This document shows, piece after piece, positions 37 through 16,579 of a DNA stretch of 20,000 bases. Source of the stretch: an uncultured virus (IMG/VR IMGVR_UViG_3300002835_000128). Lineage: Duplodnaviria; Heunggongvirae; Uroviricota; Caudoviricetes. The DNA lies in the IMG/VR virus record IMGVR_UViG_3300002835_000128; one strand, written 5' to 3'. Every line of letters starts with the position of its first letter. Within the stretch, counting starts at the first letter, position 1. A model generated the notes under the pieces. It searched no databases and had not been told where the DNA came from. It saw nothing but the letters and a program-made list of their open reading frames with translations. The position numbers were made by a program, and so were the translations under genes.

Positions 37-38
37 AA

Positions 39-239: not shown

Positions 240-269
240 AATTCGCTCTCTAATCAATCAACAAAGACC

Positions 270-710: not shown

Positions 711-716
711 GCCACT

Positions 717-768
717 ATTGTACACTAACCAATGGCATTGTCAAGGGGGCTGTTGTATTTTTACAACA
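717..768 (-). promoter_or_regulatory. sigma70-type promoter with upstream TGTTG-N8-CAACA palindrome
   Basis: TTGACA (744-739), 16 nt, TACAAT (722-717); palindrome at 751-768. Confidence 0.85.
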
Positions 769-945: not shown

Positions 946-1084
946 TTTCTTTCTCCTCTCGCATCAAACGATAAAAAGATTTATCGTGGTGCTTTTGTTT
1001 TTTAGAACCTTGACCTTCACGTTCTTGGTTCTTTCTAAATTTAGTTTTTTGTGTCTTTTCTATTTTTTTACCGCCAGTAAACAT
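935..1084 (-). CDS. small basic hypothetical protein, 49 aa (MFTGGKKIEKTQKTKFRKN...)
   Basis: Hand-translated; GAGGGAG SD directly after the clpP stop; fills the intergenic gap. Confidence 0.7.
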   Translation of the reverse strand: MFTGGKKIEKTQKTKFRKNQEREGQGSKKQKHHDKSFYRLMREEKENVV

Positions 1085-1093
1085 ACGCTCCCT

Positions 1094-1654: not shown

Positions 1655-2594
1655 TTTTGTGCCAAAGTCTCGCCGTTTGAATTATGTCGGTTAAAGTATA
1701 TTTTGGTTGATATTGAATAGTTTGTTCTGCTAACGATATGTCGGCTACTAACCTGGGAGGGTCGCCTGGGCGGCGAGAGTGAAAATTGATTTTTATGTTT
1801 TCTTTTGTAAGTTCTTTTACCTTGTTTACTACTTCCAAAACGGATTGACCTTTACCTGTTCCTAGGTTCATAGTAATTGAATCTTTTCCTTCAAAAAGGT
1901 ATTCAGCCGCTTTCAAATGCGCTGTTGATACATCGTTTACATGCACATAATCACGAATACAGGTCCCATCTGGTGTATTGTAATCGTTTCCATATATCTT
2001 AATCATATTTAGATTTTGCAATATTTTTGGAATCAGATGTGTTTCTGGTTCGTGATCTTCACCTATTAAACCAGATTCATCAGCGCCAGCTAGATTGAAA
2101 TATCTGAATATCACATGTTTGATGTCTGAATTTCGAATTGATATTTCTGAGCAGTATTTACTAGCCGCATAGGGATTGTTATCTGGATTTAGTGGAGATT
2201 TTTCAGTGAGTGGTTCTTCACTCGATCTGTACAATCCAGCAGTTGATGAATAAATTATTTTATCGACTTTGAAGTTTCTCATCACCTCTAAAACGACAGA
2301 GGTTCCTGCAGCGTTGTTTAAAAAATACTTTGATGGAAAAGAAACGGATTCTGCTATGTCTATTAAACCAGCAAGGTGAAAAACCACATCAACATCTGGA
2401 GCCAACCAGAAAGAATGAGTTAATTCCTTTTTGTTACAAACATCACCGCAAAAGGAATGATTCCAGTATGGATGGGTAGGTTTCTTAATATCAAAAACGG
2501 AAACAGTCCATCCATTTTCAATTAACATCTTGCATAGATGAGAACCAAGATAACCGAAACCTCCGGTCACGAAAGCAGATTTTGATTTAGCCAT
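1641..2594 (-). CDS. galE: UDP-glucose 4-epimerase (extended SDR family)
   Basis: VTGGFGYLGSH, HLAG, YSSTA, NPYAASK, RYFNLAGA, ETHLIP, TPDGTCIRDYVHV, NLGTGKG, RRPGDPP. Confidence 0.92.
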   Translation of the reverse strand: MAKSKSAFVTGGFGYLGSHLCKMLIENGWTVSVFDIKKPTHPYWNHSFCGDVCNKKELTHSFWLAPDVDVVFHLAGLIDIAESVSFPSKYFLNNAAGTSVVLEVMRNFKVDKIIYSSTAGLYRSSEEPLTEKSPLNPDNNPYAASKYCSEISIRNSDIKHVIFRYFNLAGADESGLIGEDHEPETHLIPKILQNLNMIKIYGNDYNTPDGTCIRDYVHVNDVSTAHLKAAEYLFEGKDSITMNLGTGKGQSVLEVVNKVKELTKENIKINFHSRRPGDPPRLVADISLAEQTIQYQPKYTLTDIIQTARLWHKNEKG

Positions 2595-3084
2595 CACGTT
2601 CAGATAATATTGGATGTTTTATCGGCCAGTATATTCCATATCTATCATCGTTCCACTTGATGGTAAACTGTGTTGACCTTTCATAATGAGCGTCCAGTTT
2701 ATAACTGAATACACATTCATCAGACATTACCAAATGAGCATTACCACATCCAGGTGGAACTAAAACTTGGTGTTTGTTTCGATCTGATAAAGTAAAAGAT
2801 ATCCATTGATTGAATGTTTTGGAATCTTCTCTTTTATCAAGAACAACAAAGTAAATAGTTCCATACAAGCACGATATCAATTTAGTTGTTCTAGAATCTC
2901 CATGAATGCCACGAAGCACATGTTTACGAGAAGTTGAAATACTATCTACCACAAAAGATTCTGTTATACCATCATGATGATATTCAAACTTATTGAACGA
3001 TTCAAAGTTTGTGCCACGAAAATCTTCATGCACAACTGGCTTAATTAATTTAACACCAGATATTTCAGTATCTTCAACTATCAT
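2587..3084 (-). CDS. rmlC: dTDP-4-dehydrorhamnose 3,5-epimerase (cupin)
   Basis: HEDFRG, VLRGIH, KLISCLYG, VPPGCGNAH, YK, IKWND, WP...ILSERD. Confidence 0.9.
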   Translation of the reverse strand: MIVEDTEISGVKLIKPVVHEDFRGTNFESFNKFEYHHDGITESFVVDSISTSRKHVLRGIHGDSRTTKLISCLYGTIYFVVLDKREDSKTFNQWISFTLSDRNKHQVLVPPGCGNAHLVMSDECVFSYKLDAHYERSTQFTIKWNDDRYGIYWPIKHPILSERDG

Positions 3085-3833
3085 TTCAAAATTCTTAGAC
3101 CAGGAGCAATCTCTACCTTAGTGTAATTACTTTCTTTTTTCCAAGGAAAATCTTCTCCATATTTTTCTTGCATAACAGAATTTCCGTTGTCGAAAAATTC
3201 TTTATTTACAGAATTAGGATTTCCATCTAAACGATAACACAAAGAATGTTTATTTGTGCAATCATATCGGGTGAAGTGTGTTTTTAATGTTTGGAAAAAC
3301 TGTCTATCGGCGCCCCACTGGCCGTACCAAGCATGCCCAATCCTAACAGCAACATCACGACGAATAGCAAAACTTGAGGTATCAATATGGAATACCGAAT
3401 CATTAAAATATACAGGCCATTTACCAAGCGATTCACAGTTGTCCTCACAAATGTAGTTACCATCTTTATCATAGATTTTTCTTAAAGAGTATGCCCAGTC
3501 ATTTCCTTGTTGAATCTTCTGTACAAGGTTCTCAACATGATTAGGCTCGATCCAATTGTCCTCATCGAGATAACATATAACATCAGCATTAACAAGAAAG
3601 CTACATGCAGCATATACACGATGACCATACCAACCTTTTCCAACATTTTCTTCAAGACGGATCGTTTTGATCTTTGATGCGCCTTCAAGTTGATGCCAAA
3701 TTTTACTTTCATATTCTCTACCATCAAGAAAAAGATAATGAACTAAATCTTCATGTGTTTGCGAATCAACAGATTGAATACAATCACTTAGTGTCTTTGC
3801 TCCGATTGTTGGAGTTACTACTGCTACTTTCAT
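3081..3833 (-). CDS. glycosyltransferase family 2
   Basis: VAVVTPT, IQSVDSQT, acidic YLDEDNW motif, ADRQFF. Confidence 0.85.
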   Translation of the reverse strand: MKVAVVTPTIGAKTLSDCIQSVDSQTHEDLVHYLFLDGREYESKIWHQLEGASKIKTIRLEENVGKGWYGHRVYAACSFLVNADVICYLDEDNWIEPNHVENLVQKIQQGNDWAYSLRKIYDKDGNYICEDNCESLGKWPVYFNDSVFHIDTSSFAIRRDVAVRIGHAWYGQWGADRQFFQTLKTHFTRYDCTNKHSLCYRLDGNPNSVNKEFFDNGNSVMQEKYGEDFPWKKESNYTKVEIAPGLRILK

Positions 3834-3933
3834 TTTTCACCTTTTTACCAAAAATTTTATCCCAGTTATCGTTGAATTTTTCACGGGGTATTTCAATAGG
3901 TCTAGGTTTTGAACCTTTTCCACCATCATTCAT
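3784..3933 (-). CDS. small hypothetical protein, 49 aa (MNDGGKGSKPRPIEIPREKFNDNWDKIFGKK...)
   Basis: Hand-translated; GAGG SD; fills the gap between the cytidylyltransferase and GT2 genes. Confidence 0.65.
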   Translation of the reverse strand: MNDGGKGSKPRPIEIPREKFNDNWDKIFGKKVKNESSSSNSNNRSKDTK

Positions 3934-4366
3934 TCCATTTCCTCAATAACCAAGATGATGAATTTCTTTTGTCACTGCCACCAACTCCATATACAAACTT
4001 AACTCCCTGAACTTTTATTTCTGCATTGTTCGATTCGTTTCTATCTCCACCATTTGCAAAAATGATTTCTAAAGGAATATAAATCGGCATAATTTTTTTG
4101 TAGTGTCCCATAACCGATTCGATTAATTCACAAGCGCTATCGTCAGAATCATCAAATTCCCACACTTCATCAATCCATTTGATTGATTCTAGAACAACTT
4201 TTCTTTCTTTTAGTGGCATGAATGGTTTACCTTTTTTGCGGGTTAACCATTCATCTGAATTTACACCAACAATGAGTTTGTCACCAAGACCAGCTGCCTC
4301 ACGAAAAAGTGCTATGTGGCCAGAATGTACAGGATCAAAACCACCAGAAACAATGACAATTTTCAT
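3926..4366 (-). CDS. cytidylyltransferase-family nucleotidyltransferase (TagD/RfaE-like)
   Basis: SGGFDPVHSGH (HxGH motif), VGVNSDEWLTRKKG, ANGGDR, NSSS. Confidence 0.9.
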   Translation of the reverse strand: MKIVIVSGGFDPVHSGHIALFREAAGLGDKLIVGVNSDEWLTRKKGKPFMPLKERKVVLESIKWIDEVWEFDDSDDSACELIESVMGHYKKIMPIYIPLEIIFANGGDRNESNNAEIKVQGVKFVYGVGGSDKRNSSSWLLRKWNE

Positions 4367-4367
4367 T

Positions 4368-4790
4368 TTATTTTCCGTATGCTTCTTCTAAGATTTTTTC
4401 GGTGAGAAATTTAATACTCAAATCTTTCTTAATCATCTTAACCAAGAGAATTGCTTCATCTTTGTGTAAAGATTCCAGTAAGACAAGAATATCTTGTGTT
4501 TGTTTTTTCCCAGTATAACCAGCCGGCCTTTTTGGATGATTCTTGATAAACTTGTATAGTTTTGGAACTTCGATATGTAGGTAAGAATAATTCAGACCAG
4601 CGGGTTCTGGCGCCGGCCTGTATTTTTCTGGTAAAACAACATCAAACTCTATTTGTGGGTCGAAACAATATCTAAGAAATTCACGGAACCTTTCGTGACC
4701 ATATTCTCTCAATACTGCAATTTTATCCGCTCGAGTTTTAGCTTCATCAAACTCTTGTAGGATTTCGGTATATAATTTATTTTTTAGCAT
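4368..4790 (-). CDS. conserved T4-like phage hypothetical protein
   Basis: 140-aa ORF coupled to rnh; LLESLHKDEAILL resembles proteins recalled next to rnh in T4-like phages. Confidence 0.8.
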   Translation of the reverse strand: MLKNKLYTEILQEFDEAKTRADKIAVLREYGHERFREFLRYCFDPQIEFDVVLPEKYRPAPEPAGLNYSYLHIEVPKLYKFIKNHPKRPAGYTGKKQTQDILVLLESLHKDEAILLVKMIKKDLSIKFLTEKILEEAYGK

Positions 4791-5638
4791 TAGAATTCAT
4801 CAATCACTTCAATTAAGTTTTTTAGGCGGTTTTCAATCATGTAGGTCATGAACCTCTGTTTAGAATTAGCCTTTGTGTTTTCAAAGCTATCTAGTATCGA
4901 TTCTTTCAGACTTCCGGGTATTTTAGTTAAATCAATTAGCGTTTCATTACGTGAAAAATTACGAAGCATTTCTTCATTACAAAAATCTACTGGTGCTTGA
5001 TTCATCCACTTGATAATTTTTTCCTCAGTAATTGGTCGTTGTCGGCCACCAGAAACAAAAACATCATCGTTTGAGAGAATGTTTGGAATACCATCACCTT
5101 TATCACCACGAATAATCAATTGTTTAAGTTGTGCGGCAGGAAAGGGTTCTTTGATATATTTTTTCAGAATAGGAGAAAATTGTTCAACATTAGGAAACTT
5201 TTGTAGTTGAGCAAAATCCTTATCTGAAGAAAGAATCATAACTTTCTGTGAAGCAGAATATTTCATCGTCAAAACAGCAATGATATCATCCGCTTCGCAT
5301 GTATCAACATCAATCACTTTGTATGGAGAATAATCTTTTAGCTCTTGTTTGATTTTGGCAAGACAGTCAAAGATCGTAGCCCAATCGTGACCAGATGATT
5401 CACGAATTTTTTTTCTACTTGCTTTATAATTAGGAAAAATCTCACGGCGCCAGTATTTTTTGTTGTCGCAGGCAATGACAACTTCTGGCCCATGAGATTC
5501 TTTGAACTTTTTTACATAAGTTCGAATGGTATTCAAAATCATGTGGCGAACAAGGTTCTCTTCAACTTGTGTTTTTGAGGAACCAATCTGTTCCATGAGA
5601 TTGGAAATTGCAACTTGGTTGAAATCGAAAATTATCAT
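4790..5638 (-). CDS. rnh: T4-like RNase H / 5'-3' exonuclease
   Basis: IIFDFNQ, YWRREIFPNYKASR, EADDII, SSDKDFAQL, GDKGDGIPN, RNETLIDL. Confidence 0.93.
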   Translation of the reverse strand: MIIFDFNQVAISNLMEQIGSSKTQVEENLVRHMILNTIRTYVKKFKESHGPEVVIACDNKKYWRREIFPNYKASRKKIRESSGHDWATIFDCLAKIKQELKDYSPYKVIDVDTCEADDIIAVLTMKYSASQKVMILSSDKDFAQLQKFPNVEQFSPILKKYIKEPFPAAQLKQLIIRGDKGDGIPNILSNDDVFVSGGRQRPITEEKIIKWMNQAPVDFCNEEMLRNFSRNETLIDLTKIPGSLKESILDSFENTKANSKQRFMTYMIENRLKNLIEVIDEF

Positions 5639-5644
5639 GAGGAA

Positions 5645-5676
5645 ATTATATCACTATTTTAATGATAAAGAGGCAA
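5645..5676 (-). promoter_or_regulatory. possible extended -10 promoter for rnh
   Basis: TGaTATAAT (5653-5645) lies 6 nt before the ATG; TTGCCT sits at an atypical 20-nt spacing. Confidence 0.5.
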
Positions 5677-5678
5677 TA

Positions 5679-6110
5679 TTATTCGTATGTTTTTTTATGT
5701 ATTTCTGTTATTAGATTGTATATAAACCCATGATCTAATTCGGTAGAATTGTTATCTTCAAATGGGATAACTTCCACTTCATCGTTTTCTAAATCGTACC
5801 AAGCCCAAATGCAAACTTCTTCCTTTGGTCTATGTATCAGAGCCCAAGGAGTTAGTTCATGTGGTGGAAACTCTTCCGTCAAAGAATTCTTATGTATAAA
5901 AACGGCAAAAGACATCATATTTGGATTCGAGTTTTCTTCGTTGGTATCTTCATCATATCCGTAACCATCAAATATGATTTTGACACCAAATGGAGAAAAC
6001 CCAGAATCATCACCAGGTTCAAACCATTCACCATCCATCGTATTGTAAAAGTAACGAACCCACTCTTCAATCATCGGAGAATAGTCACGTTCATCATCAA
6101 GATATATCAT
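5679..6110 (-). CDS. acidic hypothetical protein
   Basis: 143-aa ORF abutting the upstream gene, GGAG SD. Confidence 0.8.
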   Translation of the reverse strand: MIYLDDERDYSPMIEEWVRYFYNTMDGEWFEPGDDSGFSPFGVKIIFDGYGYDEDTNEENSNPNMMSFAVFIHKNSLTEEFPPHELTPWALIHRPKEEVCIWAWYDLENDEVEVIPFEDNNSTELDHGFIYNLITEIHKKTYE

Positions 6111-6962
6111 TTAAATCTCCACGTATTTTAGTTTAAATTCATCAGCACGAGCTTCATAGTTTATGTATCCTCTTGGATTACAAACAATGCGGGTTGTGCC
6201 AATCATGTAGTCGAAACTCTCATGCGTATGGCCATGAGTCCATAATTTAATCTGCCTACGGTCAAGAATATACTCATCCAAATTGCTACTGTATGCACCA
6301 TTTACGATAAACTCACTTTTGTATCGAGGATGTGTACTTGCTTTACTCGGAGCATGGTGGCCACAAACAACAACAGGCAAATTAGGATTCAATTCTAAAA
6401 TCTCATCCAGTTTACTGAGAAAAGCTTTATGGTCTTCCACAGAATCCTCTGGTATGAAATTGATATAATCCTTATCATCAGTTTTAATACCATTTTTAAC
6501 ACAATTAAAATCGTTCATTGTAAAACGAATCTGTGCAAGTGTAATTGGATCCTCACGGTTCATATCAGTCCATAATGTACCACCAAAGAAAAGAATACCA
6601 TTAATGATAGTCCATTCTTTGTCTAGGAAATACACATTGTGAAGATCACCAAAAGTCCCACGAATAGTCTTAGCACTTTTCTGAAAGTCTCCATGATAAT
6701 GTTCATGGTTACCCATGATAAGAATTACATGAGGGAATCTTTCCGAACAACGAACTACAAAATCATAATATTTTTTTGCACGTTCACGAACACTTTGTGT
6801 TGCAGGAATAATTGCACTTTCGTATTCATCATATACGAAATCGGTTAGCTCAGAGGCAATTAAAATATCTCCACTCAGAACCAATACATCAGCACCCTCA
6901 TCATTATGAAAGTCTAAATCTCCAAATTCCAAATGAAGGTCGGAACAGACAGCGATTTTCAT
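6111..6962 (-). CDS. calcineurin-like metallophosphoesterase
   Basis: SDLHLE, LSGDI, GNHEHY, HHAP, HGHTH, CNPRGY. Confidence 0.92.
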   Translation of the reverse strand: MKIAVCSDLHLEFGDLDFHNDEGADVLVLSGDILIASELTDFVYDEYESAIIPATQSVRERAKKYYDFVVRCSERFPHVILIMGNHEHYHGDFQKSAKTIRGTFGDLHNVYFLDKEWTIINGILFFGGTLWTDMNREDPITLAQIRFTMNDFNCVKNGIKTDDKDYINFIPEDSVEDHKAFLSKLDEILELNPNLPVVVCGHHAPSKASTHPRYKSEFIVNGAYSSNLDEYILDRRQIKLWTHGHTHESFDYMIGTTRIVCNPRGYINYEARADEFKLKYVEI

Positions 6963-8041
6963 TTGCTTACCTTTAATAAAATAGTATCTTCGTTTATTCT
7001 TCCAGTCAAAGCAGAAGGAACAGCTTTGATTCCGTCAATTACATTCCGAAGAAAAACTTTACCACCAGACATAACCTCTGGTATCGTCACTTCGGGTTTT
7101 CTAAGCTTTTTCTGAATAGATTTTGTTTCGTTAAAATTTTGTATCGTGGAACCTTTTACAGTTAAACCACCAGCATCTTCTGCATGATAACAACCTAGTT
7201 TTCTTGTTTTCGTATTATACACCCAAAGTTGCATAACACCAACAATCAATTTAGGTTCAACAGATTTAATCTTTAATTCTTCAAACTCAGCACAATACTT
7301 CATTTTACCGACAAGCTGTTCAGCAGTTTTTACTTTTCTCTTTCGAGGCTTTCTAGTCTTAGCTGCTTCACCAGTAACTTTACCACAATCTAGAATAATT
7401 TGGTCACAATAAGCAATTAGCTTCTTTAATTGTGTTTTTGTGAAGTTAGAATAACCTTCTTTTAAATCCTTATCATCGGTATTCATCACTTCATCAAATT
7501 CATTTCTTTTTTTCTTGAACTCTTCAAGAATCATTTTAACATGAACCGATTTTATATCAAGGGTGTTCATCACAGCATAAGGTGAAACATTTGCTTTAAA
7601 ATCTGTTTCGATTAATTGATCGATTTGTGATTCCAACTCAGCAATACATTCAGAAGATTTTTCTTTTATTCGGTCTTGAATGGTCACTTTATTTGAATCA
7701 TCGACCTTGACAATTACCTTAACTTTATTTTGTTCAAGTTTTTTCTTTACACTTTCAACCTCATCCTGAAACCAATTTCTGTATTGAATTGGTAATTCGC
7801 CCCCATTCAAAAGTATTCTACAAACAAAACCAAAAGTTGGAGATTTTCCATCTAAAGCATCTTCAGCATTTAGTTTTAATTTTTTCTTAAAATAGTCCGA
7901 AGCATATTTGTATGAATCTTTTGTAACTTTATTTTGAGCATACCAAGATAAAGTTTTCATTAAGTCCAAATTAGTGAGCTCACCATTGAACTTTGGCTCA
8001 TTACCTGCAAAAACAGAATTAGCATCCAATATTCTAGCCAT
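6959..8041 (-). CDS. conserved phage hypothetical protein, Lys-rich, 360 aa
   Basis: Long ORF overlapping both neighbours; no catalytic motif recognised. Confidence 0.85.
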   Translation of the reverse strand: MARILDANSVFAGNEPKFNGELTNLDLMKTLSWYAQNKVTKDSYKYASDYFKKKLKLNAEDALDGKSPTFGFVCRILLNGGELPIQYRNWFQDEVESVKKKLEQNKVKVIVKVDDSNKVTIQDRIKEKSSECIAELESQIDQLIETDFKANVSPYAVMNTLDIKSVHVKMILEEFKKKRNEFDEVMNTDDKDLKEGYSNFTKTQLKKLIAYCDQIILDCGKVTGEAAKTRKPRKRKVKTAEQLVGKMKYCAEFEELKIKSVEPKLIVGVMQLWVYNTKTRKLGCYHAEDAGGLTVKGSTIQNFNETKSIQKKLRKPEVTIPEVMSGGKVFLRNVIDGIKAVPSALTGRINEDTILLKVSK

Positions 8042-9279: not shown

Positions 9280-9982
9280 ATTCAGCTTCAGGAATTCTTG
9301 TTCTAGTATTTCTACTGCCAAGTAAAACAACAATTCTTCTACCAACTCTAGTATCTAGCATCATCACGATACAACCACCAGCAGGATTAGTAAAACCCGT
9401 TTTACTTACAATAAAATGATGACGATGACCAATGATTGGATTGGTGTTGTGAACGACAGTCCATTTTTTCTTTTTAGTTTTAATTTTTAGATTTGATGTT
9501 TGACTAGCCTCTACGATTTCAGGATACTTTTCTGCTTCTTTAACTAGTCTAATCAAATCTTTTGCTGAACTGATATTGTTTCTGCTTAAACCAGTTGAAT
9601 CATCAAATGATGTATCACACATACCAAGTTTCATTGCTTTACGATTCATCGATTCGATACAAGCATTCCATCCGCCAGGATAAAACTTACATAACAATGC
9701 AGCTGAACGATTGTCAGATTTAACCAAAGACAACTGGATCATTTGCCTTCTTGTCAAATTAACTTTATCTAATTTTTCATCTAGGTTGGAATTTGAATCG
9801 AGAACCACCATAGCAGTCATTAGTTTTGTAATGCTTGCTATCGGCCTTTTTGATTCGATGTTTTGTTGGTCGATAATATTACCTTCTCCGTCAGTGACAA
9901 GCCAACTTTTAGCTGTCACTTGAATTGCTATGCTATTCGTAGAAAATAATAGTATGAAAAAGAATAGGATTTTTCTTAACAT
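9257..9982 (-). CDS. peptidase S11 family D-Ala-D-Ala carboxy/endopeptidase (PbpG-like) with signal peptide
   Basis: SxxK (ASITK), SxN (KSDN) and KTG (SKTGFT) motifs; signal peptide MLRKILFFFILLFSTNSIA. Confidence 0.9.
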   Translation of the reverse strand: MLRKILFFFILLFSTNSIAIQVTAKSWLVTDGEGNIIDQQNIESKRPIASITKLMTAMVVLDSNSNLDEKLDKVNLTRRQMIQLSLVKSDNRSAALLCKFYPGGWNACIESMNRKAMKLGMCDTSFDDSTGLSRNNISSAKDLIRLVKEAEKYPEIVEASQTSNLKIKTKKKKWTVVHNTNPIIGHRHHFIVSKTGFTNPAGGCIVMMLDTRVGRRIVVLLGSRNTRTRIPEAEFIALKAA

Positions 9983-9995
9983 TTGGTTATATATT

Positions 9996-10070
9996 TGGTC
10001 CGCCCGCCAGGAATCGAACCTGGATTAGAAGCTTAGAAGGCTACTGTATTTTCCATTATACGACAGGCAG
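9996..10070 (-). tRNA. tRNA-Arg(TCT)
   Basis: Cloverleaf, anticodon loop CTTCTAA, encoded CCA. Confidence 0.92.
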
Positions 10071-10075
10071 ATAAT

Positions 10076-10152
10076 TGGTGGGCTGTGCAGGACTTGAACC
10101 CGCACTCAACCGATTATGAGTCGGCTGCTTTGACCATTTAAGCTAACAGCCC
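10076..10152 (-). tRNA. tRNA with CAT anticodon, probably Ile2 (lysidine type)
   Basis: GCCGA-CTCATAA-TCGGT; resembles bacterial tRNA-Ile2; CCA. Confidence 0.8.
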
Positions 10153-10157
10153 ATTAC

Positions 10158-10243
10158 TGGTGCGAGAAGAGGGATTTGAACCCTCAATCCCTTACGGGCG
10201 TTGGATTTTAAGTCCAAAGTGTATACCGTTCCACCATTCTCGC
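10158..10243 (-). tRNA. tRNA-Leu(TAA)
   Basis: Loop CTTAAAA, long variable arm, CCA. Confidence 0.93.
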
Positions 10244-10246
10244 TAT

Positions 10247-10320
10247 TGGTGCCTCGGGACAGAATCGAACTGCCGTGGCCGCTTTGTAAGAGCGGAGTTC
10301 TACCATTAAACTACCGAGGC
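10247..10320 (-). tRNA. tRNA-Val(TAC)
   Basis: CCGCT-CTTACAA-AGCGG, CCA. Confidence 0.92.
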
Positions 10321-10328
10321 TTTAATTC

Positions 10329-10404
10329 TGGGGTGTCTTACCGGTATCGATCCGGTACTGAAAGTTCCACAGACTTTCGTGCAGGCCACTACACTAAAGA
10401 CACC
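10329..10404 (-). tRNA. tRNA-His(GTG)
   Basis: Loop CTGTGGA, G-1:C73, atypical T-loop ATCGATA, CCA. Confidence 0.9.
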
Positions 10405-10406
10405 AT

Positions 10407-10483
10407 TGGAGCAGTTATCCAGATTCGAACTGGAACCCAAACCTTGGCAAGGTCTTGTGCTAACCATTAAACACCATAACTGC
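10407..10483 (-). tRNA. tRNA-Gly(GCC)
   Basis: Loop TTGCCAA, U73, CCA; first G shared with the upstream TAG stop. Confidence 0.92.
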
Positions 10484-10773
10484 TAAGTAATATTGAAAGA
10501 AACTGACTTGATTGAATCCCAACGGAAAGAACGCCATCCGGATGCTTCTACGTCCCATACTGCTAAAGCATCACCAGACTTTTTCTTGGTCTCCTGACTG
10601 ACCGATTCAATTTGAAATGCAGGAATAAAATCTTCCTGTAGTGTACACCTCATAACACGCTCAGTGCCATCTTTTTTCGTAAAAGTGACTTCGACAACTT
10701 CGTTTTGAAGCATTGTTTTGAGCCACTGACGACCAGTAACAGCATCTGTACTCTCACCAACGAAAACATTCAT
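10483..10773 (-). CDS. WYL_2/DUF2693-like SH3/Sm-fold protein
   Basis: VVEVTFTKKDGTERVMRCTL...VWDVEASGWRSFRWDSI; GAGG SD. Confidence 0.8.
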   Translation of the reverse strand: MNVFVGESTDAVTGRQWLKTMLQNEVVEVTFTKKDGTERVMRCTLQEDFIPAFQIESVSQETKKKSGDALAVWDVEASGWRSFRWDSIKSVSFNIT

Positions 10774-10794
10774 GTTTTACCTCATTATGTTAAA

Positions 10795-10869
10795 TGGAGC
10801 GGGTGACAGGGATCGAACCTGCGACGAACAGCTTGGAAGGCTGACACTCTACCACTGAGTTACACCCGC
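10795..10869 (-). tRNA. tRNA-Gly(TCC)
   Basis: Loop CTTCCAA, U73, CCA. Confidence 0.95.
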
Positions 10870-10874
10870 ATACT

Positions 10875-11345
10875 TTATGCTGCAAGACTTTTGTATCTAT
10901 CTGCTGCATATGAAGCTGCAAAAGCTTTTGGCTTAATCATAGGAACAACATTACACATACCTTTAATATAACCAATCGCCTCATTAATTACTATACTAGA
11001 ATTGTACATCTGATTTGGATTAATGTCAAGGTGAACTTCGATATCATTCTCAATTACTTCCGCTAATTTCAGATACATTTCGGCAACTTTGTAAACCTCA
11101 TTCATTAACCTCATTCTAGGTTTGAATCTATTCTGGTCATAATCACGCTCACGAATAACTTCACCAAAAATCTTACAACCATTATTGCCATTAATATGGA
11201 CTACAGCGGCAATGATATAGTCGGCATACCAAACATCATTTACTCGAATTCTTTCTGAATCACAACCAAGATAAATTTTAGTTTCTGGTCCACACGAATC
11301 AATAAATTCTTTTACTTTAAGAACATCGATTGGTTTATTGTACAT
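10875..11345 (-). CDS. RNase H-like YkuK (DUF458) family protein
   Basis: IYLGCDS, RLMNEV, EVHLDIN, IKPKAFAASYAADR. Confidence 0.82.
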   Translation of the reverse strand: MYNKPIDVLKVKEFIDSCGPETKIYLGCDSERIRVNDVWYADYIIAAVVHINGNNGCKIFGEVIRERDYDQNRFKPRMRLMNEVYKVAEMYLKLAEVIENDIEVHLDINPNQMYNSSIVINEAIGYIKGMCNVVPMIKPKAFAASYAADRYKSLAA

Positions 11346-11367
11346 TCTAAACTCGCTTTCTTTTTAT

Positions 11368-11441
11368 TGGCCTCGATGTACGGACTCGAACCGCAACTAA
11401 CAGTTTTGGAGACTGCTGTGCTGCCATTACACCACACCGAG
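11368..11441 (-). tRNA. tRNA-Trp(CCA)
   Basis: GCAGT-CTCCAAA-ACTGT, G73, CCA. Confidence 0.92.
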
Positions 11442-11447
11442 ATTGAT

Positions 11448-11523
11448 TGGCCGGTCTTGAGAGAATCGAACTCCCACCTGCGGGTCCGTAGCCCGCCGTA
11501 ATCATCCATTTTACTAAAGACCG
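11448..11523 (-). tRNA. tRNA-Arg(ACG)
   Basis: GCGGG-CTACGGA-CCCGC, CCA. Confidence 0.92.
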
Positions 11524-11526
11524 AAT

Positions 11527-11603
11527 TGGTGCGCCAGGAGAGATTTGAACTCTCAAAATTATGCTTCTAAGGCATACACGTATACCAGTTCCGTCACCGG
11601 CGC
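11527..11603 (-). tRNA. tRNA-Leu(TAG) with short variable loop
   Basis: TATGC-CTTAGAA-GCATA, 77 nt, A73, CCA. Confidence 0.88.
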
Positions 11604-11607
11604 TTAT

Positions 11608-11681
11608 TGGTCCTTCCGAATGGTAACGATCCACTGTCTATCGATTATCAATCGATTGCTCTACCTTTGAGCTACGGAAGG
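11608..11681 (-). tRNA. tRNA-Ile(GAT)
   Basis: ATCGA-TTGATAA-TCGAT, atypical T-loop ATCGTTA, CCA. Confidence 0.88.
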
Positions 11682-11682
11682 A

Positions 11683-11762
11683 TGGTGGAGAATATCGGAC
11701 TCGAACCGATCTGAATATCCGCATTGCAAGTGCGGCGACCACCCCAGGCAGTCCCATTCCCC
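11683..11762 (-). tRNA. tRNA-Ala(TGC)
   Basis: Loop CTTGCAA, G3:U70 pair, CCA. Confidence 0.9.
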
Positions 11763-11767
11763 CAAAA

Positions 11768-11841
11768 TGGTCTCGGTAGGAAGAATCGAACTTCCGCCAC
11801 ATGCTCCCAAAGCACGTATGATACCATTTCACCATACCGAG
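11768..11841 (-). tRNA. tRNA-Pro(TGG)
   Basis: CGTGC-TTTGGGA-GCATG, CCA. Confidence 0.93.
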
Positions 11842-11847
11842 TTTAAA

Positions 11848-11921
11848 TGGTGCCCGTTGACAGAATCGAACTGCCAATTCCGGGTTACAAAGCCGGAGTT
11901 ATACCATTTAACTAAACGGGC
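11848..11921 (-). tRNA. tRNA-Thr(TGT)
   Basis: Loop TTTGTAA, GCC acceptor start, CCA. Confidence 0.92.
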
Positions 11922-11930
11922 TTAAAAAAT

Positions 11931-12005
11931 TGGTAGAAGCGGAGGGACTTGAACCCACACAGCACACCGTATGAAGGTGCTGCACTACCATTATGCTACG
12001 CTTCT
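11931..12005 (-). tRNA. tRNA-Met(CAT), probably elongator
   Basis: GCACC-TTCATAC-GGTGT, CCA. Confidence 0.85.
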
Positions 12006-12022
12006 ATCGCCTCACACGCTAC

Positions 12023-12104
12023 TGGTGGGTTGAGTAGGGATCGAACCTACTTGCCGAAGCCACGGGGTTACAGCCCGCTGCCCTACCATTAGAGCATTCA
12101 ACCC
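12023..12104 (-). tRNA. tRNA-Tyr(GTA)
   Basis: Loop CTGTAAC, variable arm with UUCG loop, CCA. Confidence 0.92.
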
Positions 12105-12109
12105 ATAAC

Positions 12110-12187
12110 TGGCTGTGAGCATTGGATTCGAACCAATCTATTTCTGATTAACAGTCAGACCCGCCTCACCTAGAACGGTAGCCCACA
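12110..12187 (-). tRNA. tRNA-Asn(GTT)
   Basis: TCTGA-CTGTTAA-TCAGA, G73, CCA. Confidence 0.9.
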
Positions 12188-12194
12188 ATAATAC

Positions 12195-12271
12195 TGGTTG
12201 CGGAGTCTTGGATTCGAACCAAGGATCTTCAGTTTATGAGACTGACGGGATGACCACTTCCCTAACCCGCA
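12195..12271 (-). tRNA. tRNA-Met(CAT), initiator-like but atypical
   Basis: TGCGGG...CCGCAACCA ends resemble fMet tRNA; anticodon stem TCAGT/ACTGA lacks the three G:C pairs. Confidence 0.78.
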
Positions 12272-12278
12272 ATAATAC

Positions 12279-12356
12279 TGGCGACATGTACGGGATTCGA
12301 ACCCGTGGTCTCCGCCGTGACAGGGCGGCGCATTAGGCCAACTATGCTAACATGCC
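12279..12356 (-). tRNA. tRNA-Asp(GTC)
   Basis: CCGCC-CTGTCAC-GGCGG, G73, CCA. Confidence 0.95.
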
Positions 12357-12365
12357 ATAATCTTT

Positions 12366-12439
12366 TGGCAGGGGATGTAAGGATCGAACTTACGACCTCG
12401 GAATCAAAATCCGGTGTGATACCATTTCACCAATCCCCA
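12366..12439 (-). tRNA. tRNA-Gln(TTG)
   Basis: Loop TTTTGAT, G73, CCA. Confidence 0.92.
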
Positions 12440-12443
12440 ACAA

Positions 12444-12516
12444 ACCATTTAGAAACACACTCGTACCCGCCAGAGAATCTAATTCATACCCGGCAGAAAG
12501 TGTACTTTTAGATGGT
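12444..12516 (-). ncRNA. long bulged hairpin in the Lys-Gln spacer
   Basis: Nested stems ACCATCTAAAAGTACACTT/GAGTGTGTTTCTAAATGGT, CTGCCGG/CTGGCGG, GAAT/ATTC. Confidence 0.45.
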
Positions 12517-12588
12517 GGGGCCACAGGGATTCGAACCCTGACCTGACGGATTAAAAGTCCGCTGTCTTAACCGTTTGACTATAGCCCC
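12513..12588 (-). tRNA. tRNA-Lys(TTT)
   Basis: GCGGA-CTTTTAA-TCCGT, CCA. Confidence 0.95.
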
Positions 12589-12617
12589 TCTATCTTACCA
12601 CTCTTGTCACTGTCCAT
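12579..12617 (-). CDS. 12-codon mini-ORF MDSDKSGKIEGL ending inside tRNA-Lys
   Basis: AAGGAG SD upstream; ATG lies within a GTCCAT-T-ATGGAC inverted repeat. Confidence 0.35.
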   Translation of the reverse strand: MDSDKSGKIEGL

Positions 12618-12630
12618 AATGGACTCTCCT

Positions 12631-12822
12631 TTATTTTACAAAAAACCCTAATTCATTTGAATGATACAATCGAACACTTTGATTCAGTTTTACAATTTTA
12701 TATTCTTTACCACCCAACAGAGAATAACCTCGTTGGAAAAACTTTGCTTCTTTCATACCAATTGCAATTTTTTCTCCCACTTTATACTTATTGAAACGAC
12801 CAATGTAACGATTCGTATTCAT
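12631..12822 (-). CDS. small basic hypothetical protein
   Basis: 63-aa ORF with GGAG SD filling a tRNA spacer. Confidence 0.7.
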   Translation of the reverse strand: MNTNRYIGRFNKYKVGEKIAIGMKEAKFFQRGYSLLGGKEYKIVKLNQSVRLYHSNELGFFVK

Positions 12823-12844
12823 ATCATCTCCAATAATTTAATTG

Positions 12845-12920
12845 TGGTACACCCAACGGGATTCGAACCCGTGTTACTGCCTTGAAAGGGCAATGTCCTA
12901 GGCCTCTAGACGATGGGTGC
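12845..12920 (-). tRNA. tRNA-Glu(TTC)
   Basis: TTGCC-CTTTCAA-GGCAG, D-arm TCGTCTAGAGGCCTAGGAC, CCA. Confidence 0.94.
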
Positions 12921-12930
12921 ATAAGCCTAA

Positions 12931-13046
12931 AATTTAGAACTAACAAGGAACTGACTGTTACATGATGCAGAAGTCATTGCCGCATCAAACCCTTGCTAAA
13001 CTCTTTTCAGAGAACGGATCGCTCATTTCCGTTTTATTTCTAAATT
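12931..13046 (-). ncRNA. candidate multi-stem structured RNA with pseudoknot
   Basis: 9-bp closing stem AATTTAGAA/TTCTAAATT enclosing four helices; loop TGACT complementary to downstream AGTCA. Confidence 0.6.
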
Positions 13047-13057
13047 GTTAAAGAAAC
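13042..13057 (-). promoter_or_regulatory. rrn-type boxA antitermination element
   Basis: GTTTCTTTAACAATTT compared with E. coli rrn leader TGCTCTTTAACAATTT; just downstream of a promoter. Confidence 0.7.
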
Positions 13058-13074
13058 TCAACTACAGAAACATC

Positions 13075-13125
13075 ATTGTATCAGCACTCAATCGTTTTGT
13101 CAAGCGCTGTTGCCGATTTACAACA
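13075..13125 (-). promoter_or_regulatory. internal sigma70-type promoter of the tRNA array with TGTTG-N8-CAACA palindrome
   Basis: TTGACA (13103-13098), 17 nt, TACAAT (13080-13075); palindrome at 13108-13125. Confidence 0.85.
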
Positions 13126-13141
13126 TTATCAAAATAACAAC

Positions 13142-13218
13142 TGGAGCAACGGGTCGGATTCGAACCGACGAACAACAGTTTTGCAGACTGCGCCATTAGG
13201 CCTCTCTGGTACCGTTGC
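13142..13218 (-). tRNA. tRNA-Cys(GCA)
   Basis: GCAGT-CTGCAAA-ACTGT, U73, CCA. Confidence 0.93.
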
Positions 13219-13224
13219 ATTACT

Positions 13225-13314
13225 TGGTCCTTCGGTGTGGAATCGAACCACATCCTGGGTCTTATCTGGACAAATGCTTATAAGGCATCCTGCTCTACCA
13301 TGAGCTACCGAAGG
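13225..13314 (-). tRNA. tRNA-Ile(TAT) with ~20-nt variable region
   Basis: GATGC-CTTATAA-GCATT, acceptor CCTTCGG/CCGAAGG, A73, CCA, 90 nt. Confidence 0.82.
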
Positions 13315-13377
13315 TTATTCTTTTATACCTCGATACAACAGAAAAAATATGACAACTATCACTATTGCAGCCATCAT
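13315..13377 (-). CDS. 20-aa single-TM micropeptide MMAAIVIVVIFFLLYRGIKE
   Basis: Hand-translated; GAGGAG SD; stop codon abuts the 5' end of tRNA-Ile(TAT). Confidence 0.6.
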   Translation of the reverse strand: MMAAIVIVVIFFLLYRGIKE

Positions 13378-13396
13378 ATTTTCTCCTCTCTTTAAA

Positions 13397-13488
13397 TGGT
13401 GGAGATAGTTGGATTCGAACCAACGGATCAGATTTCTCCAATCGACGGTTTAGCAAACCGCTGCCTTAAGCCACTCAGCCATATCTCC
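13397..13488 (-). tRNA. tRNA-Ser(GCT)
   Basis: Loop TTGCTAA, long variable arm, CCA. Confidence 0.94.
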
Positions 13489-13501
13489 TACAAATACAAA
13501 C

Positions 13502-13589
13502 TGGCGGAAGCGGTGAGATTCGAACTCACGAACAGTTTCCCGTTGCTGGTTTTCAAGACCAGTGCCTTCAACCACTCGGCCACACTTCC
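13502..13589 (-). tRNA. tRNA-Ser(TGA)
   Basis: Loop CTTGAAA, long variable arm, G73, CCA. Confidence 0.95.
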
Positions 13590-13596
13590 AAAAATT

Positions 13597-13672
13597 TGGT
13601 GCAACCTAGTCGAATCGAACGACTTTCAACGGCTCTTCAGACCGCCGCTATGACCACATCAGCTAAGGTTGC
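13597..13672 (-). tRNA. tRNA-Phe(GAA)
   Basis: GCGGT-CTGAAGA-GCCGT, CCA. Confidence 0.9.
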
Positions 13673-13682
13673 ATTACAAACC

Positions 13683-13719
13683 AAAAACAAAAACCCCCGA
13701 TTTTTTAGGTCGGGGGTTT
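13683..13719 (-). terminator. intrinsic terminator (candidate attenuator) immediately upstream of the first tRNA
   Basis: AAACCCCCGA-cctaaaaaa-TCGGGGGTTT followed by TTGTTTTT. Confidence 0.88.
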
Positions 13720-13762
13720 ATGTATTGGGTCTGTTACTCTTAAAATCTATACACAATCCCCC
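13712..13762 (-). promoter_or_regulatory. antiterminator helix competing with the terminator
   Basis: GGGGGATTGTGTAT (13762-13749) pairs with ATACATAAACCCCC (13725-13712) at 13 of 14 positions. Confidence 0.75.
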
Positions 13763-13875
13763 ATTGTTCCTGTAAAGCCTTCATCACCATTTTTCTGGAG
13801 GCGATAAGCGACAGGCCAAATTGAATTTGGTCTGTGGGAACAAATGCTTGTCGTTATGTGTAGTGAATTTTTCAT
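13747..13875 (-). CDS. 42-aa candidate attenuator leader peptide MKNSLHITTSICSHRPNSIWPVAYRLQKNGDEGFTGTMGDCV
   Basis: Hand-translated; lies between promoter and terminator; contains all 20 amino acids; last codons form the antiterminator 5' arm. Confidence 0.75.
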   Translation of the reverse strand: MKNSLHITTSICSHRPNSIWPVAYRLQKNGDEGFTGTMGDCV

Positions 13876-13884
13876 AGTTTTTAG

Positions 13885-13913
13885 ATTATACTCCATTATA
13901 TAGGCTTTGTCAA
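13885..13913 (-). promoter_or_regulatory. consensus sigma70 promoter heading the tRNA array
   Basis: TTGACA (13913-13908), 17 nt, TATAAT (13890-13885). Confidence 0.9.
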
Positions 13914-13921
13914 GCGTTTTT

Positions 13922-15496
13922 TTAGGTATTTTTAGATTTTTTTATCAACTTATCCTGCACTATCAGGAAGTCTAAACTAGTTGTTGTCAAAATGTCAAGA
14001 GCATCTTTAACGGTAGTAATCATTGGATTACCATTCACATTAAAAGAGGTGTTCAACAAAATATTCATTGATCCAAGCAATTCGTAAAGAAAACTGTTCT
14101 GCTCTTTTTTCACCGTTTGAATTCTTGCCGTTCCATCAACATGGGTAATCGATGGATATTTTTCTCTATACTCAATTCGAACTTTTGGTGAAAATGACAT
14201 GAATCTGGACTCATAATCAAATTCAAAATACTTGTTTCTATCTTCGAATCTCACAACTGGAGCAAATGGTCGAAACCATTCACGATTTTTTATCTTGTTT
14301 AACTTATCTTTCATTCCGGGAAAAGAAGGATCACAAATCATACTTCTATTTCCCAAAGCTCTTGGTCCAACTTCAGAATTACCTCGTATTACACCAAATA
14401 TGTTACCTTGTTTCAGTAAAAAAGAAACTTCATTCAAATCCAAATCTGTAACCTCATAATCCGATGCAAGTGAATCAAATTCGTTCAGGTCAAGTATCGG
14501 TGCACCACAATAGGTTACGTCAATTTGTTCATTTGGTACATTTACTAAAAATAACTGACCTAAAGATATGCCACTATCATCTACATTCGGCGGAACGAAA
14601 ACTTTGTTACCGTATTTTTTACGTATTTCTTCATTCAGTAGTACATTTAGTCCGCAACCACCTGATATGATGATAGGATCGTTGTCAACATAGGATTCTA
14701 CAAGTTTAAAAAATTCTTTTTCAAAAACAAATTGATTTGTTGCAGCCAAATCATACGCTAGTTGTCCCGAATACTGTTTACAAAAAGGATTTGCTTTAAA
14801 CTCCTCTTCGTTTACATGTTCCAGTCCTGTTGCAGACTTTAATTCGTTTAAACTGCCGGTTTTATAGAAATATGTGAATCCTTCAATCCATTCTTTTCTA
14901 ATTTTACCATAAGCAACTAAGCCCATGAGTTTACCAGCATAGCCAACCATGGGCTTTATTTTTCCACCTTGGTCCTTCTTTATATCTTCAAGTATAAATG
15001 AGATTTGTCTATAACATTTACCAAAAGAAGGGACTTCCAATCTTTTAATGTGCTCAATCAGTCCATCAAATTTATAAATGTTGAATCGACCATCATTTCC
15101 AGCGCCATCAAATGAAATGACTGTTCCTTTTGTATAAGGAGATTGATAGGCACTACAGGCTGCATGGGAAAGGTGATGGTCTAATAAAACATACTTTTTA
15201 GCATGAACTAATTTTTTGATTTCCTCAATTAATACCAATGTTTTAAATTGAACACGTAAAGTATGACCAGGAAAAGCACAAACATCGAAGGTTTCTCCGA
15301 TGCCGTAATGCGATTTCATTATTTTTAGTGAATCTGCTATAATTTTTATAGCTTCATCTTTTGAAACGCTGAGTAAACTGAAATATCTTTGTTTAACCAA
15401 CCTTTCAATTTCAAAAGTGTAATATTTTCCGTTTTTCTCGATACTAATTGAAGCGCCATGCTGAAAATAAAAAGAAATATTACACTTTTCGATCAT
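13922..15496 (-). CDS. O-carbamoyltransferase, NodU/CmcH/TobZ family
   Basis: DHHLSHA, DGAG, AGKLMGLVAYG, SGGCGLNV, EVGPRALGNRS, KNREWFRPFAP, HVDGTARIQTV, LNTSFN. Confidence 0.93.
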   Translation of the reverse strand: MIEKCNISFYFQHGASISIEKNGKYYTFEIERLVKQRYFSLLSVSKDEAIKIIADSLKIMKSHYGIGETFDVCAFPGHTLRVQFKTLVLIEEIKKLVHAKKYVLLDHHLSHAACSAYQSPYTKGTVISFDGAGNDGRFNIYKFDGLIEHIKRLEVPSFGKCYRQISFILEDIKKDQGGKIKPMVGYAGKLMGLVAYGKIRKEWIEGFTYFYKTGSLNELKSATGLEHVNEEEFKANPFCKQYSGQLAYDLAATNQFVFEKEFFKLVESYVDNDPIIISGGCGLNVLLNEEIRKKYGNKVFVPPNVDDSGISLGQLFLVNVPNEQIDVTYCGAPILDLNEFDSLASDYEVTDLDLNEVSFLLKQGNIFGVIRGNSEVGPRALGNRSMICDPSFPGMKDKLNKIKNREWFRPFAPVVRFEDRNKYFEFDYESRFMSFSPKVRIEYREKYPSITHVDGTARIQTVKKEQNSFLYELLGSMNILLNTSFNVNGNPMITTVKDALDILTTTSLDFLIVQDKLIKKSKNT

Positions 15497-15684
15497 TTTT
15501 CCTTTTTCTCAACATTTACTTCCGTTTTTTCACTTACAACATTGTGAAATACGGCAACTTTGAACGGTTTCCAATAACGACAAAATACATTGTTCAAAAA
15601 AAGTATCGATAATCCGAGAATAATCAAAGATACGCTAAGTAAGATTGATCCGGCTAGAAAAATTACAGCTGTTTCAATATTCAT
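15493..15684 (-). CDS. small membrane protein
   Basis: Long hydrophobic N-terminal segment; ATGA overlap with the carbamoyltransferase gene. Confidence 0.7.
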   Translation of the reverse strand: MNIETAVIFLAGSILLSVSLIILGLSILFLNNVFCRYWKPFKVAVFHNVVSEKTEVNVEKKEK

Positions 15685-15720: not shown

Positions 15721-16203
15721 TTACTCGTCATCACTTTCTTCCCAATCTTCGACCAGGTCGTAAAGGTTCCAATGTTCGATCAAATATTCAGGAATATCCT
15801 CTAAAGATTCAGGATTTCCACTTTCATACTCATATTCTTCAGATTCACCTTCATAAAATCTTCCGACAAATGACATTCCTTCTTCCAAAAATGAAGCATC
15901 AACATTAATGTCAGAATCATCTAGAAATTCATACAATTCTATCGGCGGTCCCCAAGGTGAATCGAACCAAAAATGAATTCCTTCATCATCCCTAGTCCAA
16001 TCTTGTGCATCACAGTTCCATTTACAACCCCAATTCTGTAAGGCCCATCCATACCACTCATCACCTTCAGCAATTTCTTGCGGAATAGGTCTAAAGAATG
16101 AAAACCATCCTTTTCCATTGTTTTCTTCCAAAAAGTTTTCAAAAGAATCTAAAACTTTTTCATCAGCATTAATTGTAATGGTATTATTGCACCAGTTGGG
16201 CAT
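15721..16203 (-). CDS. YubB/DUF1281-like (Api92-like) ferredoxin-fold protein
   Basis: MPNWCNN start, W...NWGCKWN, FDSPWGPP, EEGMSFVG. Confidence 0.75.
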   Translation of the reverse strand: MPNWCNNTITINADEKVLDSFENFLEENNGKGWFSFFRPIPQEIAEGDEWYGWALQNWGCKWNCDAQDWTRDDEGIHFWFDSPWGPPIELYEFLDDSDINVDASFLEEGMSFVGRFYEGESEEYEYESGNPESLEDIPEYLIEHWNLYDLVEDWEESDDE

Positions 16204-16207
16204 AAAA

Positions 16208-16579
16208 TTACTCCTGTTTTGTCTTAATATCAGATTCTTTGCTCATCGTAACAATGTTTTTCGTTTTTTTCAGGTAATTTTTGAACCATTTTGTCGATTT
16301 CGTTGTCTTTCTAAGTACACAACCACCTAATCTGCCGCCTACAAGGTTTCTAACATACACCAAAGGGTCAGAAAATATCGCCTCAAACGATTCATCGAAC
16401 TCCAGGACGCCATTATCGTTTACCTTAAAGAAGGCAATGTGATATTTGTCGCCCATTTGAGTGTGCTCTATCTTTTCACCTCGATCCCTTTTCTTTTGAA
16501 ACTCGAAAAATGACAACTGTAGCTCATCGTCATACTCTCCGGGCGTAAAAAAGAAGCCGTCAAAGTCAACTTTATTCAT
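16208..16579 (-). CDS. hypothetical phage protein
   Basis: 123-aa ORF with AGGAG SD. Confidence 0.8.
   Translation of the reverse strand: MNKVDFDGFFFTPGEYDDELQLSFFEFQKKRDRGEKIEHTQMGDKYHIAFFKVNDNGVLEFDESFEAIFSDPLVYVRNLVGGRLGGCVLRKTTKSTKWFKNYLKKTKNIVTMSKESDIKTKQE

Follow-up and report, generated by a model that had tools for sequence, protein, structure and literature searches.

Between the carbamoyltransferase gene and the tRNA genes of an uncultured large phage from lake water lies a 230-bp element made up of a promoter, a short open reading frame (ORF), and a terminator, which raises the question of what governs the transcription of the phage's own tRNAs. A first-pass annotation, made from the sequence alone, had interpreted this element as an attenuator whose leader peptide contains all 20 amino acids. 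Comparison with related phages supports that interpretation, in that the design is conserved, the completeness of the amino acid set is maintained, and the competing helix carries compensatory changes. We consider it probable that the element is a ribosome-mediated leader-peptide transcription attenuator, which heads the tRNA array and senses the decoding of almost any amino acid.

Genomic setting of the leader

The window (the whole 20,000-nt stretch of DNA analyzed here) encodes a head maturation protease, an exonuclease, sugar-nucleotide enzymes, and a carbamoyltransferase, and its DNA is present in freshwater and lake metagenome runs, with no RNA run among the sequencing runs listed for it. 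Contig L001 belongs to the same phage and ends inside the leader, and the nearest record (G001) covers window positions 1-8022 only. The carbamoyltransferase gene ends at 13922 and is directly followed by the promoter of the leader (Table 1). This promoter, annotated as TTGACA-17-TATAAT, was recovered at 13913-13885 on the minus strand, and it is the sole 12/12 match among 17 promoter-like sites in 9500-15500, a region for which shuffled sequences give 15.4 such sites. The terminator was likewise found in the fold at 13719-13683, and the first tRNA gene begins at 13672, about 10 nt past it as the first-pass annotation had stated. These 10 nt are too short for any other promoter.

Table 1 Coordinates of the leader elements and of the tRNA array in the window
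Feature	Position	Strand	Remarks
-35 hexamer TTGACA	13908..13913	-	12/12 consensus match, 17-nt spacer
-10 hexamer TATAAT	13885..13890	-	Leader ATG 9 nt further on
Leader ORF, 42 codons plus TAG stop, no Shine-Dalgarno	13747..13875	-	ATG at 13875, stop 13749-13747
Structured leader body, two hairpins closed by a 7-pair helix	13764..13843	-	Minimum free energy (MFE) fold
Antiterminator 5' arm, last ORF codons, ends at the first base of the stop codon	13749..13762	-	Reading and folding
Antiterminator 3' arm, overlaps the terminator 5' arm at 13719-13712	13712..13725	-	Reading and folding
Intrinsic terminator, stem-loop 13719-13691 plus T-rich tract to 13683	13683..13719	-	Present in MFE fold
tRNA-Phe (GAA), first gene past the terminator	13597..13672	-	10 nt from T tract
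Array of 27 tRNA genes for all 20 amino acids, with 3 interspersed ORFs	9996..13672	-	Presumed regulated unit

Inside the array, a consensus scan allowing loops of up to 8 nt identified no terminator-like sites on the minus strand; with this limit, the scan also misses the window terminator itself, which has a 9-nt loop. Two additional promoter-like sites are present in the array, at 13103 and 11029, each with 11 of 12 matches. The first of these (13103-13075, in the stretch 12921-13103 of the minus strand) has an extended -10 element and is followed by about 150 nt without an assigned feature and then by tRNA-Glu, with no ORF or terminator pattern evident after the promoter. The array also includes an unusually long tRNA with anticodon TAT, called as tRNA-Ile (13225-13314, minus strand). 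Such TAT tRNAs (90-92 nt) are present as well in the related contig L020 (15887-15979, minus strand), where the only Rfam match is a weak tRNA-Sec-like one (31.7 bits versus a threshold of 47), and in the cultured Stenotrophomonas phage DLP_6 (L243, 6650-6741, plus strand), where the gene is annotated as tRNA-Ile-TAT. It looks like a tRNA with a long variable arm that reads AUA.

A leader ORF with all 20 amino acids

The 42-codon ORF described by the first-pass annotation is present as stated, although the program-made ORF list contains a 49-codon form in its place, beginning at an ATG at 13896 inside the promoter spacer. No Shine-Dalgarno sequence is visible before the leader ATG, and with a distance of 9 nt between the -10 box and this ATG, the 5' untranslated region is expected to comprise only about 2-3 nt. 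As annotated, the peptide contains all 20 amino acids, the last of them appearing for the first time at codon 34; this is about 14 nt ahead of the antiterminator arm. It has no amino acid runs and no enrichment of a single amino acid.

Among the long ORFs of the clade, 161 of 10,027 windows of 42 residues (1.6%) contain all 20 amino acids. For 34-residue windows, a rate that the first-pass annotation had proposed to compute, the figure is 16 of 10,427 (0.15%). Random peptides of matched composition have completeness rates equal to those of the ORF windows. Since 1.6% of 42-residue windows are complete, the window peptide alone is unusual but not compelling. This rate is also what would speak for pure chance, in which a short open frame with all 20 amino acids would lie between a strong promoter and a terminator by coincidence, as would the promoter-like sites being as common as in shuffled sequences. 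The codons of the leader have no special match to the tRNAs of the phage, as 37 of 42 are wobble-readable by them, compared to 84% of 3889 codons in the phage genes, i.e., there is no enrichment over these genes. The tRNAs of the array also cover all 20 amino acids, so the amino acid match between leader and array is at the level of the whole set.

Competing helices ahead of the tRNA genes

The terminator of the window consists of a 10-pair stem with a 9-nt loop, followed by a T5-G-T5 tract. The annotated pairing of 13762-13749 with 13725-13712 at 13 of 14 positions was confirmed, and comprises 12 Watson-Crick pairs, one G-U pair, and one mismatch. Eight bases (13719-13712) are common to both helices, so the antiterminator and the terminator cannot coexist. 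When the 3' arm of the terminator is withheld from the fold, the antiterminator forms at -16.6 kcal/mol. The energy of the duplex is -15.1 kcal/mol, compared to a mean of -8.8 for shuffled arms (p 0.022). The full-length transcript has an MFE of -57.2 kcal/mol (z -3.9), a value that none of 200 shuffles equaled, and this fold includes the terminator. In the same fold, the antiterminator arm is taken up by pairing with the 5' part of the ORF, and the structured leader body (Table 1) is a possible pause or anti-antiterminator element.

The window therefore has a promoter-proximal ORF, a terminator before the first gene, a mutually exclusive antiterminator, and a stop codon beside its arm, all of which are expected of an attenuator. 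Runs of regulatory codons for a cognate amino acid, which are also expected, are absent.

A diverged homologue and natural variants

A diverged homologue of the leader, which we refer to as the G-group, was first seen in an IMG/VR contig that encodes a carbamoyltransferase 73% identical to that of the window, and more copies were found in metagenomes. Synteny with the carbamoyltransferase locus of that contig (L002) was rejected, because no tRNA follows the gene and the element is elsewhere on the contig. There, the G-group unit is located in a region of dispersed tRNA genes. Its promoter is followed, 10 nt past the -10 box, by the ATG of a 39-codon ORF, and then by an antiterminator and a terminator with a T5-G-T4 tract. 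From the features common to the window and G-group units, we built a pattern that was searched against viral contigs and metagenomes.

The G-group comprises 11 distinct ORFs of 38-39 codons, 10 of which contain all 20 amino acids and one 19 (it has no Cys), and the peptides are only 26-37% identical to that of the window. When residues were shuffled within alignment columns, a mean of 4.2 of 11 peptides were complete and none of 20,000 shuffles reached 10, a figure inflated by the relatedness of the sequences. Each of the three codon positions has about the same number of variable columns (17, 17, and 16 of 39), which argues that the peptide sequence itself is not what is conserved in the G-group. 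Both indels in the G-group ORFs are 3 nt long, and the loop after the stop codon differs in length by 1-3 nt. Residues present in a single copy shift rather than disappear; for Cys, for example, there are three positions, of which one is used. In 1.84 billion proteins, a profile search recovered seven further short G-like proteins, with 20, 19, 19, 19, 19, 18, and 20 kinds of amino acids (counted by eye from the conserved Met). Since these include proteins with 18-19 kinds, completeness is common but not absolute.

The antiterminator arm of the G-group stops 2 nt short of the stop codon, and that of the window reaches into this codon by one base. The ORF body of the G-group folds into a hairpin of its own, the antiterminator is the more stable default fold, and there is no clear anti-antiterminator. 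Judged from these predicted folds, the outcome without translation may differ between the window and G-group lineages. By reading, the G-group units are followed by a small Shine-Dalgarno-led ORF and then by a tRNA-like RNA, not directly by a tRNA. In L020, about 260 nt of GC-richer, apparently structured sequence (15980-16240, minus strand) is located between this small ORF and the tRNA-like gene, and it has no Rfam match at E<=0.1. A 24-codon ORF is present just upstream of the G-group leader in L020 (16706-16780, minus strand) as well as in L026 and L028, and we take it to resemble the PqqA precursor peptide of pyrroloquinoline quinone synthesis.

Two natural variants of the window phage were also recovered. 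The first (pieced together from two contigs, run X20) differs in the ORF by four amino acid changes and a net loss of 3 nt, and still contains 20 kinds of amino acids. In the second (one contig, depth 9.1), the sole Trp is replaced, leaving 19 kinds. A plus-strand A>G change at 13720 in the natural variants converts the G-U pair of the window antiterminator to G-C.

Recurrence of complete leaders before related tRNA arrays

The tRNA array of the window contains a gene for a DUF458/RNase H-like protein (10875-11345), by means of which 80 related phage loci with arrays on the plus strand were gathered (63-78% identity). These loci were scanned, without regard to amino acid composition, for ATG-started ORFs of 25-60 codons with a stop no more than 80 nt before a hairpin-plus-T-tract terminator, and the resulting units were sorted by the presence or absence of a same-strand tRNA within 400 nt downstream. 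The 39 distinct peptides before tRNAs include 22 with 20 kinds of amino acids, four with 19, and six with 18. Among the units without a downstream tRNA, only 3 of 124 distinct peptides are complete, and at least one of these (in L237) is a true leader with its tRNA just past the 400-nt limit. When counted from the innermost ATG, 15 of 39 are complete before tRNAs and 1 of 124 without a tRNA.

A leader-like unit (an ORF of 31-44 codons and a terminator before tRNAs) is present in 36 of the 80 loci, L171 included, and is complete in 27 of these 36. No leader was found by these criteria in 44 of the 80; 17 of the 45 loci scored as having no leader, a count that has L171 among them, are truncated within 500 nt upstream of the first tRNA. 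Several of the complete leaders are short, at 31-34 codons. One or two amino acids (mostly Val) are found solely in the last five codons in 18 of 31 leaders; these codons lie on the antiterminator arm, which a ribosome stalled there would not free, and the strict reading of an all-amino-acid sensor is softened accordingly. Judged by eye, the lineages have little sequence in common beyond a few motifs; the window and the G-group, at 26-37%, are an example.

From these loci, the all-amino-acid leader family can be defined by a sigma-70-type promoter with an ATG 6-10 nt after the -10 box, an ORF of 31-44 codons with at least 18 kinds of amino acids, an antiterminator 5' arm at the end of the ORF, a terminator, and same-strand tRNAs downstream, and the window has every one of these features. 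The first-pass annotation had proposed to compare the regions upstream of related tRNA arrays, and had named homologous loci without the ORF or the antiterminator complementarity as an outcome that would count against its interpretation. Promoter, short ORF, antiterminator, and terminator are retained in the relatives, and all or nearly all of the 20 amino acids are kept despite divergence (22 of 39 versus 3 of 124), an outcome that favors the attenuator.

Covariation of the antiterminator and the start of the message

The best duplex between the end of the ORF and the 5' flank of the terminator was compared to that of shuffled arms, and the complementarity exceeds the shuffles (p<=0.05) in 25 of 32 high-diversity candidates, compared to 3 of 34 control units. 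For covariation, we aligned 17 sequences over their 3' regions, taken from the window, the G-group, and further lineages. Across this alignment, 85.7% of the cells of the 14-pair antiterminator are paired, and compensatory changes on both sides are present in 8 of the 14 pairs (shuffle mean 4.0; 0 of 500 shuffles as high), with a covariation score of 0.267 versus 0.135. When the partners are slid by 1-3 columns, pairing decreases to 23.6-58.2% of the cells. Covarying antiterminator pairs, which the first-pass annotation had suggested looking for, are thus present in the relatives.

These comparisons weigh heavily against chance. The design recurs in many diverged lineages, specifically before tRNA arrays (the 22 of 39 versus 3 of 124 given above), and the antiterminator covaries, leaving coincidence with a negligible probability; as far as comparative data allow, it is refuted.

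In the four relatives scanned, the leader ATG is in each case located 6-7 nt after the -10 box of a promoter with 11-12 of 12 matches; the corresponding distance is 9 nt for the window and 7-10 nt for the G-group. This fixed spacing of the ATG, together with the missing Shine-Dalgarno sequence, is indicative of leaderless translation, and points to a leader mRNA that is leaderless or nearly so. It is also hard to explain for a non-coding RNA.

In several relatives, a second promoter-like site of the sigma-70 type is located between the terminator and the first tRNA (L163, 6238-6266; also L169, L172, L188, L199, L214, L230, and L235), in which case attenuated transcription would add to a basal level. 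Many of the loci L163-L242 also have a short conserved A/T-rich motif (GTTCTTTAAAAATTT-like) in the last ~40 nt before the first tRNA, which may be a processing or promoter-proximal signal.

The second promoter-like site is relevant to an explanation in which the element is an independent small gene, complete with promoter and terminator, whose product (a small structured RNA or a peptide of 42 residues) would act at another site, while the tRNAs are transcribed from other promoters or by unregulated leak-through. Besides the second promoter-like site of some relatives, the further promoter-like sites within the window array, the G-group copies that precede an ORF and no direct tRNA, and the unusually good folding of the leader RNA (z -3.9) are consistent with such a gene. 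A functional peptide should keep its sequence, however, and here the codon positions vary equally and completeness is kept instead, while nothing about a small RNA calls for an open frame, indels of 3 nt, or the full set of 20 amino acids. Further, the helix that competes with the terminator covaries, and in the window, the 10 nt before tRNA-Phe leave no room for another promoter. Given this evidence, we regard an independent small gene as improbable.

Searches outside the family

Neither the leader nor the G-group element has a BLAST match in 50,697 phage records, and BLAST of the whole array region against phage records matched tRNA genes only. The exact terminator string has no match in viral contigs. 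In phage DLP_6, whose array protein is 56.5% identical to that of the window, no such leader is present in the 20 kb examined. Small coding sequences that end 7-10 nt before a tRNA gene are present in this genome (5046-5216, 5640-5852, 8124-8384, and 13275-13484), an arrangement unlike that of the window in that there is no terminator between. These searches thus turned up no cultured relative with the element.

The search pattern described above also caught Leu-rich leaders in GC-rich bacterial metagenome contigs (L033, L037, L043, L046, L049, L052, and L094; L041, L084, L105, and L107). By eye, these look like classical leader peptides with attenuators, and they constitute an accidental positive control for the pattern. 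Several tRNA-adjacent units of other uncultured phages (L024/L027/L075, L083, L090, L097, and L056/L100) were left out of the family since their amino acid diversity is ordinary (tail probabilities 0.04-0.78). In these, a short ORF with 14-18 kinds of amino acids in 21-39 codons ends at a G-run, and the G-run and a terminator are located immediately before a tRNA; they may be attenuators of another type.

Among Rfam families, only tRNA models pass the threshold, with Thr_leader at 22.4 bits versus a gathering threshold of 55 and rimP at 24.3 versus 47, and there is no T-box match at E<=1 in 13000-14200. These results bear on a switch independent of translation, in which the leader RNA would bind a tRNA or a protein directly, as a T-box does, and the open frame would be incidental. 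Antiterminator and terminator logic needs no ribosome, and the ORF body is strongly structured, both of which agree with a switch of this kind. The absence of a T-box match and of any Rfam family at threshold except tRNA is against it, and it leaves unexplained why the ATG keeps a distance of 6-9 nt from the -10 box, why the stop codon adjoins the arm, why the indels preserve the frame, and why the peptides are complete. A switch of this kind thus appears very unlikely, more so than the independent small gene.

A proposed decoding sensor for phage tRNA supply

In the attenuator that we propose, the strong sigma-70-type promoter would start a nearly leaderless mRNA, of which the 42 codons sample all 20 amino acids. 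If the ORF is read smoothly to its stop codon, the ribosome would sit on the 5' arm of the antiterminator, the terminator would form, and the polymerase would stop before the tRNA genes. That a ribosome at the stop codon would cover this arm is in keeping with the known sizes of ribosome footprints. A ribosome delayed at an earlier codon for lack of a usable charged tRNA would allow the antiterminator to form, and transcription would then read through into the array. The same read-through would be predicted where no ribosome arrives in time. All 20 amino acids precede the arm, so a shortage of almost any usable tRNA would open the switch, and the lower the decoding capacity of the infected cell, the more the phage tRNAs would be transcribed. 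Translation of the leader ORF, the direction of the switch, and its physiological trigger, which might be starvation, cleavage of tRNAs by host defenses, or a general slowing of ribosomes, are what we infer from the anatomy of the element and its conservation.

One consideration is against an attenuator of this type, in that more tRNA is no remedy for true amino acid starvation. A tentative suggestion, which we consider possible yet doubtful, is that the leader is a sentinel of the whole tRNA pool, through which host anticodon nucleases and other tRNA-depleting defenses, by slowing the ribosome at the affected codon, would induce the phage's full set of replacement tRNAs. It would be an inducible counter-defense in which a single 42-codon ORF reports on all 20 amino acids.

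If the proposed attenuator is correct, large phages use feedback from translation itself to set their tRNA supply, which would explain how a phage tRNA set responds to codon-usage mismatch or to host defenses that cleave tRNAs. The leader would be a compact and portable sensor of overall translation capacity. In this 230-bp element, textbook attenuation has apparently been rebuilt as a general decoding gauge, which includes every amino acid, keeps its completeness as the sequence drifts, and gates the phage tRNAs. The element makes the question of when and why phage tRNAs are expressed directly testable.

Comparison with known systems

In full-text literature outside subscription journals, we found no description of a leader-peptide attenuator before tRNA genes, or of an all-amino-acid leader. 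To our knowledge, all described cases of leader-peptide attenuation concern operons linked to one amino acid or a few. T-box RNAs have no ORF and bind one specific uncharged tRNA directly. The window leader is like a T-box in that the state of the tRNA pool would set read-through into translation-related genes by means of competing helices, and is unlike it in having an ORF and no T-box match.

In the trpL, hisL, pheL, and leuL leaders and the pheST attenuator, the stop codon adjoins the antiterminator strand, and the first regulated gene begins shortly past the terminator. The window leader has the same geometry of stop codon, antiterminator, and terminator, and differs from them in that no single amino acid is enriched and no Rfam leader model is matched. 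PMC1183508 and PMC3082878 are papers on such systems.

The window leader can also be set beside multivalent leaders, in that it has a promoter-proximal short ORF and an antiterminator strand in common with the terminator, and in that the position of the ribosome would decide between the helices and more than one amino acid would be sensed, as in ilvGMEDA, ilvBN, and thr. The latter are multivalent leader-peptide attenuators of enterobacterial amino acid operons, in which runs of two or three cognate amino acids are present and biosynthetic enzymes are controlled. In contrast, the window leader has one to a few codons for each of the 20 amino acids and no runs, is (nearly) leaderless, and belongs to a phage, where the genes that it would control are those for tRNAs.
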